From: Eledone cirrhosa | Taxonomy: Eukaryota | Length of the DNA stretch: 64,000 bases | Assembly (NCBI GenBank): GCA_964016885.1 | Contig: OZ024763.1 | Location: 11,718,001-11,782,000 of the forward strand | Direction of reading: 5' to 3' | Shown here: piece after piece, positions 11,254 through 55,318 of the stretch | Numbering within the stretch: the stretch's first letter is position 1 | Layout: the number at the start of each line of letters is the position of its first letter | Notes under the pieces: model-generated | Told to the model about the DNA's origin: nothing | What the model saw: only the letters and a program-made list of their open reading frames with translations | Database searches by the model: none | Position numbers and translations under genes: made by a program

Positions 11254-11267
11254 ATATATATATAAAG

Positions 11268-11643
11268 CAAATTTAATATAGAAATGGCTTCTACAGGACT
11301 AGAACTGTTTCATTTGAAGGAAATCATCAGGATGAAACAGTTCTAGTCCTGTAGAAGCCATTTCTATATTAAATTTGTTGTTTACACTCAACTAATGTAT
11401 TGAGTACCTTACTGCGGTTACCCCCAATTGAACCCAGGACTCATACACACATACACATATGCGTGTGTGTGTGAGTCCCAGGTTCAATCGGGGGTAACCA
11501 CAGTAAGGTACTCAATACATTAGTTGAGTGTAAACAACAAATTTAATATAGAAATGGCTTCTACAGGACTAGAACTGTTTCATCCTGATAATTTCCTTCA
11601 AATGAAACAGTTCTAGTCCTGTAGAAGCCATTTCTATATTAAT
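11268..11643. mobile_element. Nested foldback element with hammerhead-core motif (Penelope pLTR-like)
   Basis: ~180-bp arms inverted around a (CA)/(TG) centre, each arm internally palindromic; CTGATGA-tttccttcaaat-GAAAC. Confidence 0.65.
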
Positions 11644-11849
11644 TCTTATATATGTATCCACTCACTGTAATTGAGGTTGGTGTTAGGAAGGGCATCCAGC
11701 TGTAGAAATCAAGCCAGAGTCAGTTCCCGTATGAGCAAGGCATGGTCAGCCGACCGGACACTGCCCACAGCAGGACAACCCGTCTAACCCATGCTAGCGT
11801 GGAAGAACGGAGTAAAACGGTGATGACGATGATGACACACAAACATACA

Positions 11850-18579: not shown

Positions 18580-18856
18580 AGTTTTTCGAATATTAATAAT
18601 TGTTTCTACTTTTGGCACAAGGCCAGCAACTACCCAGTGTATTACTTAATAACATTCGATTCGTTTGCAATTTTGCAAACAAACCCCAATTTTATAGCCA
18701 TGTCAGTAGAATGAACCCTTCATTCTTGCTCTTATGTTGGCATGCCAACACAAGAGCAAGAATGAAGGGTTCATTCTACTGACATGGCTATAAAATTGGG
18801 GTTTGTTTGCAAAATTGCAAACGAATCGAATGTTATTATTAATATTCGGAAAACTA
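18580..18856. mobile_element. Spacer-less palindrome (foldback) with a SINE A fragment in the left arm
   Basis: Centre TTGGCATGCCAA (18737-18748); arms 18647-18742 and 18743-18838 nearly perfect. Confidence 0.8.
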
Positions 18857-21844: not shown

Positions 21845-22035
21845 AGTGGTGGAATGGCAGTATCGGTCAAGGGTGGGACGCCATGCTTTGACGCATAGAG
21901 TTACGGCCCTTGCCATTCTGAGTTCAAATCCCGTCGAGGTTAACTTTGCCTTTCATCCTTACGGGGGTCGATAAAATAAAGTACCAGTAATGCACTGGGG
22001 TAATTGCTGGCCTCGTTCCAAAAGTAGAAACAATT
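21845..22035 (+). mobile_element. tRNA-derived SINE family A
   Basis: Family consensus. Confidence 0.85.
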
Positions 22036-22055
22036 ATATATATATATATATATAT

Positions 22056-22250
22056 ATTTAATATAGGTGAGATTCTACAGGACTAGAACTGTTTCATTCT
22101 TCAGAAATCATCAGGAATTCCTGATGATTTCTGAAGAATGAAACAGTTCTAGTCCTGTAGAATCTCATCTATATTAAAACCTTTATACTCTGCAATGTAT
22201 TGAGTACCTTGCTTACTGTGGTTACCTCCGATTCAACCCGGAATAACGTA

Positions 22251-22252
<2 letters not shown>
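22056..22252. mobile_element. Foldback element with hammerhead-core motif, same family as 11268 and 47980
   Basis: Palindrome centred on CAGGAATTCCTG; CTGATGA-tttctgaagaat-GAAAC; unique tail with GTATTGAGTAC; (TA)n flanks. Confidence 0.7.
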
Positions 22253-22295
<43 letters not shown>

Positions 22296-22891: not shown

Positions 22892-23818
22892 TCAGCATGT
22901 ACCCATGGGAGGTCGGGTACCCTGTATTACTGCGTGACGCCAGAAGTCACGGTCGTGTGTCATTGACTTTGAGAGGTGTAGTTGGGTAAGGTCGGCTTTT
23001 ATCACCTCATCCCAAGTCATCTTGGGTCTCCCCACTCCGCGGTTTCCATCAACTTCTAGTGCTCTGCACCTTTTTATGCAGCTGTCATCCTTCATACGCA
23101 TCACATGTCCATACCAGCGTAACCGCCTCTCCTGCACGCAGCATTTGATTCCTCTTATGCTCAGTCTCTCTCTCAATTCATTTATGCTTTGTCGTTCACG
23201 TATATTACTGTTACACATCCATCGGAGCATGCAGGCTTCGTTTCTCTCTAATCTACGTAAGTCTTCCACCTTCAGCGCCCAGGTCTCACTACCATGCAAC
23301 ATCGCTGTTCGGATACACGCATCATACAGTCTGCCTTTCATTCTGAGGGAGAAGCCTTTTGCAGCTAGCAGTGGTAGTAGTTCCCTAAACTTCTTCCATC
23401 CCGTTCTTACCCTAGTTATTGTACTTTCTGAGCACCCACCTCCGTTGCTAATTCGGTCACCTAGGTAGCAGAAGCTGTCTACTGTTTCTACAGGGCCCTC
23501 CCAGAGATTGGTGGTACTTGTTTCCTGTGGCTGTTTGCTTGCTGTTTCAGCACAGCTGCTGCATGTGAATCCTACATTCTTAATTAAGCTTCCTGAGATC
23601 CCGCTACATCTCTTGTGTACCCATTGTTTGCATTTGGGGCAAAGAATGGAGTTCCTACCTACACCTTTCCTACATACTGAGCAAGGCCATTTCCCTGAGG
23701 GGATCTGGGTTCTGTTTTCTCGTCTACTTATAAGGACCTTAGTCTTTGTCATGTTGACTTTGAGGCCCTTTCTCTCTAGTCCCTGCTTCCAGGTTTGGAA
23801 TTTATTCTCTAGTTCTAT
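22892..23818 (-). mobile_element. 5'-truncated RTE-clade LINE: open RT C-terminus containing a PHD finger
   Basis: GLKVNMTKTKV, FCYLGD, MLHGSETW, RRLRWYGHVMR, GRPKMTW; C4HC3 insert CSVC..CPKC..H..C..CSSC. Confidence 0.93.
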
Positions 23819-23828
23819 ATATTCATTT

Positions 23829-23867
<39 letters not shown>

Positions 23868-23872
<5 letters not shown>

Positions 23873-24195
23873 AAATGAAAATCCGAAGGCAAGGTAAAAT
23901 TCCAATCATTTAATCACGACACATGTTTCAATAAGAGATAGATCGATTGTGAAGCCATGATCGATTATCACTGATCTCATCAGGTGAAAATGAATTGTCT
24001 TCAAATTCTTGATATGAGGGAGAAAAAAATAACGATGTTCTCTCACAGAATTCATTCCCTCATATTCCTTCATTTTCACCTGATGAGATCAGTGATAATC
24101 GAACATGGCTTCACAATCGATCTATCTCTTATTGAAACATGTGTCGTGATTAAATGATTGGAATTCTACCTTGCCTTCGGATTTTCATTTTGATA
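23868..24195. mobile_element. Inverted-repeat element with a hammerhead motif in each arm
   Basis: Arms 23868-23994 and 24069-24195 are near-perfect reverse complements; (TA)n on the left flank. Confidence 0.75.
24071..24156 (+). ncRNA. Minimal type I hammerhead ribozyme candidate
   Basis: tcac CTGATGA(24080) ... GAAAC atgt GTC(24145) gtga; helix I tcac/gtga extended by cattt/aaatg. Confidence 0.55.
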
Positions 24196-24947: not shown

Positions 24948-25460
24948 TTTAACGCTTTAGCATTTAAACTGGCTGTATCCGGCCAGAATTCTCTCATCTC
25001 TTTCAGTTCAAACCGGCTGTAACCGGCCACTTATACTGATGTTAAGGTATTGTTCTCAAAAGGGATACTATCAAAATCTCATAGATTCGATATCATGCGA
25101 GATAAATCCTTTACCATGAAAATACAATAGTAAATATAGAGTAATCATCATCATCATCATCATTTTACATTCGCTCTTATGTAAAATTGTGAAAGATTTA
25201 AACATTTTTTTTTTTTATTTAGATAAATATAATGAAGCTTTATTTTAGAGAAACCAGGCAGGTTCAGGTAGTTTAATAACAAAATGGTTAACACTTTAGC
25301 ATTGACATTACATTTCATATACTATTATGCTTTCATGGTAAAGGCTTTACCTCATAATTATCTCACATAATATTAAATCTATGAGATTTTGATATTATTT
25401 ATTTTGAGAACAATATTTTAACATCAGTATGAGCAGCCAGTTACGTGTCTAACTGGGCTA
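24948..25460. mobile_element. Two decayed family P (TTAA) MITE copies in opposite orientation
   Basis: TTAACGCTTTAGCATTTAAA and TTAACACTTTAGCATT termini; internal homology to 44173-44604. Confidence 0.65.
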
Positions 25461-45270: not shown

Positions 45271-46304
45271 TGTTGTGAAAATTTGCAAAATTAGTGTAAA
45301 GACTTTATCATTTAATGTGATGTAGTCATAGAGTTGTTTAGTATATTCCAACAATGTCTTGCTGATATGGCATCATGTGGTTTGTTAATTCAAATGTGTA
45401 CAGTACCTTTACTAGTGAACAGATTGTTGTGAAAACTTGCAGTTTTAGACTAAAGGCTGCAATATTTAATGTAATGCAACTATAATGTTCCTTTGTACTT
45501 TTAAAGAATGTCTTGCTGATGAGGCTTCATGTGGAACAGGATGTTAAGAGTTAAATGATATTTAGGTTATTGATGATGACAATGTTTTCCCAAAACGTAT
45601 TGTTTCAAGTAGAAGATCATGAGAACATTTCAAATTTGTTCAAAGTAAATTTCTTAACCCTTTTGTGACCACATTTCTAATGAATTACACAGTCTGTGAG
45701 TTTCAATTAATTTTGAAAAAATAATCAATAATTTGGAGGGGTGGTGGGATGGATTTAACAAAATGACTGATTCCTACATTATTGGTAACTCTTAACATCC
45801 TGTACCACATGAAACCACATTAGTGAGACATTCTTGAAAAGTACAAAAGAACATTATGGTTGCATTACATTAAATATTAAAGTGTCCATGGCAGCATAGA
45901 AAATGGAATTATGATGATGATGAGAATGATGGTCGTGGTATATTACTGGTACCAGATTAATTAACTCATGCTATGTGTGGAGTAGACCTTGCTGTGAAAG
46001 ACAAAGTTGACTTCCTGGAAGGAACACATGTGGGAGGAAATATACACAAAATACACTCGCTCATAGACGTACAGACATACAGACACTGGGTTCAGTCACA
46101 CTGTATAGCTCCTTAGGCAAGTATCTTCTACTACAACCTTAGGTTGACTAATGCATTGAAAGTGGAATTTAGTAGGCAGAAACCTGGCATGTATAATTAT
46201 TTTTAATTTTTTCACCAAAATGTTTTTAAAAAAGGGTCTCAAATTTCATATAGCTTAGGGTCCCAGCAGGTGAAAGTTTAGCCCTAGTCATACAGCATTA
46301 TATA

Positions 46305-47426: not shown

Positions 47427-47562
47427 GTGAGTCCCAGGTTCAATCAGGGGTAACCTCAGTAAGTAAAGTACTCAAAACATTTGTAGCATGTATTCCTGAT
47501 GATTTCCTTCGAATGAAACAGTTCTAGTCCTGTAGAAGCCATTTCTATATTAAATTTGTTAT
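47427..47562. mobile_element. Rearranged copy of the hammerhead-core foldback family
   Basis: GAGTCCCAGGTTCAATC...GTACTCAA joined to CTGATGAtttccttcgaatGAAACAGTTCTAGTC. Confidence 0.65.
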
Positions 47563-47749
47563 ATATATATATTGGGTTTTGCCTACCGTAATTTTCAATG
47601 TGTCAAGCTATCTAAATGTATGCTATTACTCTCAGGACCTCCTACCCTTATCGAGTGCTTTGCTACTCATTCCTTATTGGAGGTTGACTTTGCTTGGCCA
47701 CAACCAAAACTTCGATTTTACTAAGCTTCCACTTGTGTATATATATGTG

Positions 47750-47977: not shown

Positions 47978-47980
<3 letters not shown>

Positions 47981-48170
47981 GTTATTCCGAGTTGAATCGG
48001 AGGTAACCACAGTAAGTAAGGTACTCAATACATTGCAGAGTATAAAAGTTTTAATATAGATGAGATTCTACAGGACTAGAACTGTTTCATTCTTTAGAAA
48101 TCATCAGGAATCTCTGATGATTTCTAAAGAATGAAACAGTTCTAGTCCTGTAGAATCTCATCTATATTAA

Positions 48171-48172
<2 letters not shown>
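47978..48172. mobile_element. Foldback element, inverted near-identical copy of 22056-22252
   Basis: Same palindrome and GTACTCAATAC tail, between (TA)n tracts. Confidence 0.75.
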
Positions 48173-53120: not shown

Positions 53121-53686
53121 AAATGCTATTGAAATGCTGGGTAAATATTCTATAGCTGTTGATCGCGAATAGATGGCTGTCGTTTATTTATCTATTATTT
53201 CTTCATAGATGCCTTTTAATCTTATAGCCTGGTTTAATTGGTTTTTGTGTGGTTGATTATGCTGATTGGGAGAGGAAATGGTGGATATATTTTATCAAAT
53301 ATGGACATAATTTATAGTATATATATATATACACACACACATTATATTAATAAATGGAAACTATATTTATAAAACCTTAATTTTATTATATATATTTCAA
53401 GGCAAATTTTGGTGCGCTTTCAACAGATAAAATACAAAATTTGTTTTATAAATGTTGACATACTCGCAGAAGAACAACCTTGACGGTTGGAGGTTCGCTG
53501 GATATTATATATATATATATATATATAGATATAGATATATATATATATAAGCAAAAGGATATTTAGTTTGTTGGTAATTCAACAAATATATATATATTTA
53601 TAACAGATTCGAAGCACCAGACAGGTTTTCTGGAGTATAATATCAATGATATTAATAAATGGAAACAATATTTATAAAACCATATT

Positions 53687-53747
53687 TATTCTATTATATA
53701 TATTTCAAGGGTACCAAAACTTTGGTACGCTCTCATCAGATAAAATA
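53687..53747 (-). ncRNA. Minimal type I hammerhead ribozyme candidate (mirror copy)
   Basis: Minus strand: tattttat CTGATGA gagc gtaccaaa gt tttggtac cctt GAAA tatat ATA atagaata. Confidence 0.65.
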
Positions 53748-53873
53748 CAAAGTTTGTTTTATAAATATGACATATCCAGGAATGATACCTTAATGAGACC
53801 TGACTATCCAGGTAAAACTTGAACCGTTAAGGTCTCATCCCTGGATATGTCAATATTTATAAAACAAACTTTG

Positions 53874-53934
53874 TATTTTATCTGATGAGTGCGTACCAAA
53901 GTTTTGGTACCCTTGAAATATATATAATAGAATA
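53874..53934 (+). ncRNA. Minimal type I hammerhead ribozyme candidate
   Basis: Helix I TATTTTAT/ATAGAATA (8 bp, 1 GU), CTGATGA at 53882, 8-bp helix II core, GAAA at 53915, 2-bp helix III, ATA triplet ending at 53926. Confidence 0.65.
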
Positions 53935-54529
53935 AATATGGTTTTATAAATATAGTTTCCATTTATTAATATCACTTATATATATATCATCATCATCATC
54001 ATCATCGTTTAACGTCTATGTTCCACGCTTGCATGGGTTTGAATGAGGGGTACATGAGTCCAGACACTAATTGACACATAGCCCTTTGCTCCAGAAAATG
54101 TAAACATGGTGGCTGGGTAAGACTCTTTAGGAACTTACATGTCTACCGGGCACAGACAGAAAGACGTGCTTTTCTGCCTGCAGCATATCACAAAATCAAA
54201 TTTCATGTGAAGATACTGTTCTCATAACAACAACAAATGCATGAATTACATCTTGTTTTGCAGAACTGTTGAAATAATTATTATGAATAAACGATTTATG
54301 TAACATCAGCATCTTTCTTAATGTTATTCTTTTATATATATACACTTGCACCTCTCTAAGACAATGTCTCTAGACTGAGATCTTTGGCACTACGCAGTAA
54401 TACAGAAGACCCGCCTTGCCTATGTACAAAGCGAAACATAGTCAGTAGGCACCTCTTAACCAAATATACACCCCAATCCACTACCCTATCCTCCCACTAC
54501 CACCAACAGCACGAGATAATGAGATCGAG

Positions 54530-55065: not shown

Positions 55066-55318
55066 TAAATTTAAATATTTTTGAAACCCATACAATGCAT
55101 TAGAAAATTAAAGGTGCTAAGATAACAATAGAATCTTACCTTAGCAAATTTCGATCGATTCTTTAAGACCTGCACAAGGACACTCCCTTGATAGTGGATT
55201 TTTAAAACCGAAAACATTTGGGATTATTAAATTTACTAAAGTAAGTAAGATACTATTGTTATCTTGGCACCTTTAATTTCCTAATGCATTGTATGGTTTT
55301 CAAAATTATTTAAATTTA
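55066..55318. mobile_element. Foldback with ~75-bp imperfect inverted arms
   Basis: CATACAATGCATTAG..AATTAAAGGTGC.AAGATAACAATAG and its reverse complement at 55253-55295. Confidence 0.65.

Follow-up and report, generated by a model that had tools for sequence, protein, structure and literature searches.

The DNA analyzed here, referred to as the window (64,000 nucleotides), carries a family of short hairpin elements which are likely 5'-truncated insertions of the end of a Penelope-like element (PLE). This end would be a pseudo-LTR carrying a predicted type I hammerhead. A hairpin would consist of two copies made from one template and placed head to head; a tail is present on one arm. The assignment to the PLEs is supported by the architecture and the ribozyme motif, as read from the sequence, and not by protein. 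Families of this kind are already known; the hammerhead of the present one is mildly unusual and its tail is long. The original prediction had proposed inverted partial pseudo-LTRs of PLEs, and the variable junctions, partial tandems, one-sided tail and microsatellite flanks reported below agree with the published pattern. The window itself is microsatellite-rich, animal-type DNA with fragments of SINEs and RTE-like LINEs.

A BLAST search of the element against the 64-kb window returned five copies (A, B, B2, C and D) with nine arms, where none would be expected by chance; a 24-nt stretch of the arm has nine exact matches in the window and none in 100 shuffles. The near-identical copies predicted at 22056-22252 and, inverted, at 47978-48172 are A and D (95.9% identity across 193 nt). 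The relatives predicted near 11268 and 47427 are present as copies B and C. All of A to D had thus been noticed beforehand, and B2 (11464-11650, minus strand) is an addition. Copies B, B2 and C constitute a second subfamily, about 80% alike to that of A and D. The arms of copy A are 60 nt long with one mismatch between them, as expected from the predicted palindrome of about 60 bp per arm. An adjacent inverted arm, 5'-truncated and placed head to head, is present in all five copies, and head-to-head joints on opposite strands also occur in the public runs X1, X4 and X15. The features are as follows.

22056-22252, plus strand: copy A, first subfamily.
22057-22116, minus strand: inverted short arm of copy A, a second 5'-truncated copy without the tail; one mismatch in 60 nt to the sense arm; (TA)n at its end.
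22117-22165, plus strand: predicted type I hammerhead motif of copy A, assigned by anatomy, with upstream letters and variants taken from reads.
22166-22178, plus strand: remainder of the shared arm of copy A, holding the inner end point; inverted arms and upstream tandem copies stop at 22174-22187.
22179-22252, plus strand: one-sided tail of copy A, about 70 nt, ending at 22246-22252.
22035-22057, unstranded: left flank of copy A, (TA)n, the tail of an upstream SINE-like repeat.
22253-22291, unstranded: right flank of copy A, (TA)19.5.
47978-48172, minus strand: copy D, subfamily of A; full 6-bp 5' strand of stem I at 48108-48113.
11264-11445, plus strand: copy B, second subfamily; core in the inverted arm, sense arm beginning within stem II, tail running into AC/AT repeats.
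11464-11650, minus strand: copy B2, 97% identical to B; junction as in B, core CTGATAA, tail to tail with B.
47427-47565, minus strand: copy C, second subfamily; inverted arm (core on the plus strand at 47496) fused straight to the tail.

Between 11076 and 11833, an RTE 3' end occurs as two direct copies of 177 nt (95%), and B and B2 lie tail to tail in the interval that separates them, with equal inner junctions. This arrangement is read as a local duplication or a re-mobilization of the whole hairpin unit.

The element was found in public runs in 14 rows from 10 studies with 11 organism codes; none of the 14 rows is on record as RNA. Four runs were mapped to positions 22088-22258 at a likeness of at least 80%, a threshold outside which more divergent reads fall, and the reads show only 30 letters upstream. 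X1 (7790 contigs mapped) may be the window's own sample. X15 consists of raw RAD-seq reads of a different sample that bears the same species label; of its 12,467,656 reads, 6535 were mapped. For X4 the number mapped was 336, and for X5, from organism B, it was 119. The evidence from reads comes from these four runs; of the nine rows with a share under 0.4, X5 alone contributes.

The anatomy of the sense arm is that of a type I hammerhead, here a predicted self-cleaving motif. In copy A a remnant of stem I (22117-22120) is followed by the core CTGATGA (22121-22127), a U.U pair at 22128/22139 that opens stem II, and stem II itself (TTC/GAA, 22129-31/22136-38) with the 4-nt loop II (22132-35). 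GAAA follows at 22140-43, and then stem III (ACAG/CTGT, 4 bp, 22143-46/22155-58) with the 8-nt loop III (22147-54). The predicted cut lies after 22159 (triplet GTA), and the 3' strand of stem I occupies 22160-65. The segment between CTGATGA and GAAAC is 12 nt long throughout while its letters vary, as had been claimed. The core is intact in six of the nine arms. Only the sense arm of copy D has the whole 6-bp 5' strand of stem I, with a seventh pair supplied by the other arm; the remaining arms are truncated inside stem I. A scan of the window for the core with a stem I of at least 4 bp gave five matches, of which three come from the hairpin family and two from another family; the average over 100 block-wise dinucleotide shuffles was 0.07. 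With a stem I of at least 6 bp and a stem III of at least 4 bp, one match was obtained, versus none in the shuffles.

Stem I comprises 6 bp in both subfamilies once letters from the reads are added. In 1237 X15 reads the letters preceding 22117 end in TTTTTTGATACCCAG (agreement 0.57), and letters ending in CCCAG before 22117 were also found in one X5 contig (146 loose letters). Many copies therefore extend upstream, and stem I of subfamily A becomes AGATTC/GAATCT. The letters preceding 22118 end in GGC in 512 X15 reads (agreement 0.49), and those behind 22162 begin with GCC in 1294 reads and likewise in X4 and X5. Together they give the stem I GGCTTC/GAAGCC, with two pairs changed on both sides relative to AGATTC/GAATCT, these changes being pooled from unphased loose ends with an X15 consensus agreement of 0.49-0.63. 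X1 and X5 show GGCT, not GGC, which amounts to one extra T or an offset. On the basis of the CTGANGA/GAAA/NUH core anatomy and the paired changes in stem I, the structured RNA of the original prediction is classed as a predicted type I hammerhead motif. Loop II (22132-35) accounts for eight of the variants listed, the stretches 22120-22131 and 22136-22162 for none of them. No two-sided changes in stems II and III were seen in seven aligned arms, two of which have the last pair of stem II broken.

Rfam gave no hammerhead match at gathering score. The best hammerhead match was RAGATH-1 with 20.4 bits versus a gathering score of 56.3 (E 0.43); at gathering score only two tRNA-like SINE heads were returned, and hairpin-driven miRNA matches fell below it. 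The hammerhead fold (-8.8 kcal/mol) lies 3.4 kcal/mol above the minimum-energy fold (-12.2 kcal/mol), with a folding z of -0.1. CTAG is part of loop III, and pairing of two strands of stem III as a dimer is predicted at -14.8 kcal/mol versus -2.4 kcal/mol for the monomer hairpin. U10.1-U11.1 at the start of stem II is a natural hammerhead variant and the best tolerated mismatch at that place, according to the available part of the source (PMC3088659). In the consensus of minimal PLE hammerheads, in the sections available (PMC4209133), stem II opens with G10.1-C11.1 and loop III is short and palindromic, so that a motif with U.U and an 8-nt loop III is classed as a variant. Since it is missed by Rfam and would escape descriptors that require G10.1-C11.1, such families may be undercounted. 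Most genomic arms, having lost part of stem I, would not be expected to cleave, and RNA transcribed across the two arms would fold into a duplex of 60 bp instead of the ribozyme; for these two reasons the inserted copies are likely inactive as ribozymes. Upstream of 22117, subfamily A has a T-rich tract that ends in CAG at the start of stem I and resembles a splice acceptor, a feature not observed in subfamily B. In Drosophila virilis Penelope the end of an intron falls at the 5' terminus of helix I, as given in the accessible part of PMC4209133.

The inverted arm of each copy ends 0-9 nt past TATATTAA and is followed by TA repeats (decayed in B2), while the forward part continues through the tail of about 70 nt, which is unique, as predicted, and present on one arm only. 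The outer ends of the insertions are fixed and the inner junction varies. When the fold-back points were mapped relative to the core, as the original prediction had proposed, three junction types were found among the five copies. In A and D the junction is at most 7 nt upstream of CTGATGA. For B and B2, a core-bearing arm meets one that begins within stem II, and in C the inverted arm is joined directly onto the tail and there is no internal palindrome. A fold just 5' of CTGATGA, predicted for every copy, is accordingly a property of two of the five, and the three other copies, as variants, strengthen the retroelement reading. Opposite-strand joints in the reads connect 22117/18 with 22136/37, 22118 with 22194/22203, and 22136/38 with 22182-89, among others.

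Two 3' end points were recognized, an inner one at 22174-22187 and an outer one at 22246-22252. The inner end is documented by joints from 22174/22177/22178 and by loose ends behind 22180 and 22187 that enter TA; behind 22180, 346 reads pass from the element into (TA)n. Exits into (TA)n behind 22246 were counted in 441 X15 reads and 64 X1 contigs. The stopping point of inverted arms is nearly uniform (22174-22187) in the two subfamilies, and variable 5' truncation with fixed 3' ends occurs in the window copies as well as in the reads. Head-to-tail joints from 22174-78 to 22117 with 15-20 letters between them, equal to a period of 78 nt, occur in X15; the commonest is represented by 73 reads with 16 starts, and about 90 of the 6535 X15 reads, over three rows, are of this kind. 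In X1 the head-to-tail joint runs from 22177 to 22120. Sequence variants exist among these joints in both runs, and the upstream tandem copy ends where the inverted arms end. Such partial tandems, forming a direct pseudo-LTR, are present in X15 and X1 reads and in none of the five window copies.

The hairpin insertions have AT-rich or microsatellite flanks at which a target duplication is not discernible. The (TA)n flanks of the original prediction were recovered at all inverted-arm ends except that of the decayed B2 and at the tails of subfamily A. They are absent from subfamily B tails, which end in (AC)n or mixed AC/AT and run into (AC)n in X1, X4 and X5. At 11445, 11464 and 47427, and at loose ends behind 22233-22241, the tails of subfamily B pass into (AC)n and its inverted arms into (TA)n. 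The AC repeat may be part of the element or of compound targets. No significant conserved structure was detected in the tail (folding z -0.1 to -1.25).

The family had been called young. This applies to A and D, and not to the family as a whole, for which the broad spread of identities in X1 (1062 contigs at 99% or more, 2153 of 7790 under 90%) indicates mixed age. The predicted mirroring of arm-specific variants was seen at 22133, which is G in both arms of copy A and A in both arms of copy D. The share of G in the depth at this position is 0.1% in X1, 1.2% in X4, 4% in X15 and 0% in X5. As it is rare in the runs yet present in both arms of copy A, the mirroring is not due to chance, and both arms derive from one template, or one arm from the other. 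The arms of copy A retain one mismatch; copying at insertion and later homogenization both fit the mirroring.

Two further, unrelated families in the window have the layout of the hairpin family together with textbook minimal PLE hammerheads. The head-to-head pair at 53551-53976 has a minimal hammerhead in each arm, with cores at 53739 (minus) and 53882 (plus), a long stem II, a palindromic TATA loop III and a stem I of 8 bp. One side carries about 95 nt of tail, and (TA)n borders the pair at either end. A third, decayed arm (53344-53462) is located 100 nt to the left of the pair. The other family, from 23870 to about 24325, has an equal layout with cores at 23983 (minus) and 24080 (plus), a 47-nt stem II, a palindromic ACATGT stem III and about 125 nt of tail, with (TA)n at either side. 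With three hammerhead families of one layout in one window, the pattern is routine in this genome.

The window also contains a near-perfect palindrome at 18647-18838 with 96-bp arms, which is present in a single window copy and in which no hammerhead core was found, and older palindromes at 55066-55318, 45461-45878 and 25019-25444. A 326-codon frame at 22892-23869 (minus strand) encodes the C-terminal part of an RTE-like LINE with an inserted PHD finger; the 3' untranslated end of this LINE terminates in (GAT)n and is repeated many times over in the window. A homologue search with this frame gave no close named relative, the best match standing at 63%. The SINE and RTE ends in the flanks resemble octopus repeats. 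In the Octopus vulgaris genome, PLEs account for 6.83% and comprise 190 families, according to the part of the report available (PMC13282606). If the host is an octopus, the hairpin family may be among those 190 families.

A Pfam search of the window frames (24 + 107 = 131) gave no PLE reverse transcriptase or GIY-YIG domain; a single PHD domain was found, in the RTE-like ORF. No ORF start running through the pseudo-LTR and tail was found in the hairpin family. Coding within the arm or tail was considered and rejected, as ATG-bearing frames contain stops and subfamily B has a 4-nt deletion or a stop. The exact 24-nt arm pattern had no match in viral, metagenome or prokaryote contigs. A degenerate hammerhead pattern matched 3 viral and 41 metagenome loci, none with hairpin-family sequence and most without stems I and II. 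Unrelated metagenome and viral contigs (L005/L012, L016, L020 and L003/L033) hold hammerhead-like motifs in which stem I measures 5-6 bp and stem II has U.U at its base. No description of the hairpin family was found in the literature or in motif-searched supplements; Dfam and Repbase lay outside the scope of this search, and the family may be catalogued there.

A route to such insertions can be proposed by analogy with Anolis Poseidon. Published PLE insertions, in the portions of the sources available, are 5'-truncated, form partial tandems and often have an adjacent inverted 5'-truncated copy; they carry a one-sided tail of 30-40 bp, and target duplications are hidden in microsatellites (PMC8557442, PMC3846280). 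The Anolis Poseidon protein cuts AT-rich DNA in vitro; it uses two reverse transcription start sites whose spacing equals the tail, with uncleaved RNA as the main template, according to the accessible text (PMC11167929). By extension, a PLE reverse transcriptase/GIY-YIG endonuclease would cut AT-rich microsatellite DNA, and reverse transcription, with uncleaved RNA of the element as template, would be primed at two positions. Of these, the outer start (22246-22252) would give the tailed arm and the inner start (22174-22187) the short arm. Each cDNA would terminate prematurely, in many cases within the ribozyme or close to it, and the truncated cDNAs would be joined head to head via one or two bases of microhomology. 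The core, upstream of the predicted cut, is retained in the window copies, which fits an uncleaved RNA template. As to the source of this RNA, a non-autonomous or heavily truncating element is slightly favored over a full-length PLE transcript, because arm and tail keep no coding frame.

Three other explanations were weighed against a PLE origin. The source could be a non-LTR retrozyme, in which 78-nt hammerhead units in tandem undergo self-cleavage into monomers or circles, with the dispersed hairpins as by-products. The head-to-tail joints with their 78-nt period and sequence variants in X15 and X1 agree with this, as do the CTAG of loop III and the predicted stem III dimer, and animal retrozymes have been proposed to derive from PLE pseudo-LTRs, in the part of the preprint available (bioRxiv 10.64898/2026.07.22.740005). 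A retrozyme is nevertheless improbable: none of the five window copies is tandem and tandem joints make up about 90 of 6535 X15 reads, the predicted cut (22160) is not where the copies begin, the core being retained upstream of it, a unique tail follows the last unit, and published monomers measure about 220-390 nt in the sections available (PMC7229834).

Highly improbable is a SINE-like repeat moved by another LINE, with hairpins arising later by local fold-back duplication of the DNA or by assembly error. It would account for the local inverted pair B/B2, which has equal junctions and lies between two direct RTE 3'-end copies, and for tails that end in microsatellites as RTE ends do. However, random fold-back would not be expected to stop inverted arms at 22174-22187 in both subfamilies, and neighboring SINE and RTE copies are not folded in this way, whereas the two other hammerhead families are. 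Opposite-strand joints in the raw reads of another sample (X15) and in contigs speak against assembly error. The original prediction had named a MITE with fixed terminal inverted repeats and no core conservation as its counter-case, and a MITE or fold-back DNA transposon inserting in TA would indeed be short and non-coding, with an inverted repeat and TA flanks. The inverted repeat is not terminal, however, as a 70-nt tail lies outside it; its length and center differ among copies, C has no internal palindrome, and conservation tracks the ribozyme core and not the ends. Since terminal repeats are not fixed, this explanation is excluded with near certainty.

Given a PLE origin, a more specific reading is put forward tentatively and is rather unlikely to hold in full. 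The family would be a non-autonomous PLE parasite of about 150 nt with a distinct hammerhead subtype, characterized by a U.U-opened 3-bp stem II and an invariant 8-nt loop III that acts as a dimer interface in 78-nt tandems. It would be present at very high copy number across about ten related species, and its second subfamily would carry or write its own (AC)n at the tail. Were this true, the second subfamily would seed microsatellites while spreading, and thousands of tiny insertions, each readable at its two junctions, would map both priming sites of the PLE reverse transcriptase in vivo. Apart from this specific reading, the hairpins are useful as material, being very short and numerous probable PLE insertions in which both 3' ends, the fold-back junction and a rare shared variant can be read from single reads. 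With them, the two-start-site model of the PLE tail can be tested in vivo, and so can the question whether truncation favors the ribozyme.

The comparison with named systems refers to the portions of the cited accounts that were available. The insertion units of EN+ PLEs (Penelope/Poseidon, Neptune, Nematis and Hydra, with Pen2a_Av of Adineta vaga and PAc of Anolis) share with the hairpin family the pseudo-LTR end with a type I hammerhead. They also have in common the adjacent 5'-truncated copy in inverted orientation, partial tandems, a tail on one side only, and targets that are AT-rich or microsatellites (PMC8557442, PMC3846280, PMC11167929). The hairpin family differs from them in its tail of about 70 nt, versus 30-40 in the published units, and in having no ORF linked to it. 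The minimal metazoan PLE hammerheads of Cervera and De la Pena 2014 (PMC4209133) are likewise of type I with CUGAUGA and GAAA cores, and share an open loop I, a short stem I and the potential to dimerize through stem III. The present motif departs from them by U.U in place of G10.1-C11.1, a 3-bp stem II, a 4-bp stem III and an 8-nt loop. One row in Fig. S3 of PMC4209133, a partial Poseidon of Hydra magnipapillata, may share the U.U and a longer stem III, although its reading is uncertain. Non-LTR retrozymes (PMC7229834; bioRxiv 10.64898/2026.07.22.740005) are also non-coding, have a type I hammerhead and some head-to-tail units, and are presumed to be PLE-driven. Unlike these, the hairpin family is mostly dispersed and inverted, has a 78-nt period and a tail, and is not bounded by the cut site. 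Naiad PLEs share the preference for (TA)n, the inverted copies and the tail; they are without a canonical hammerhead in the account available, whereas the hairpin family has the full three-stem motif (PMC8557442).
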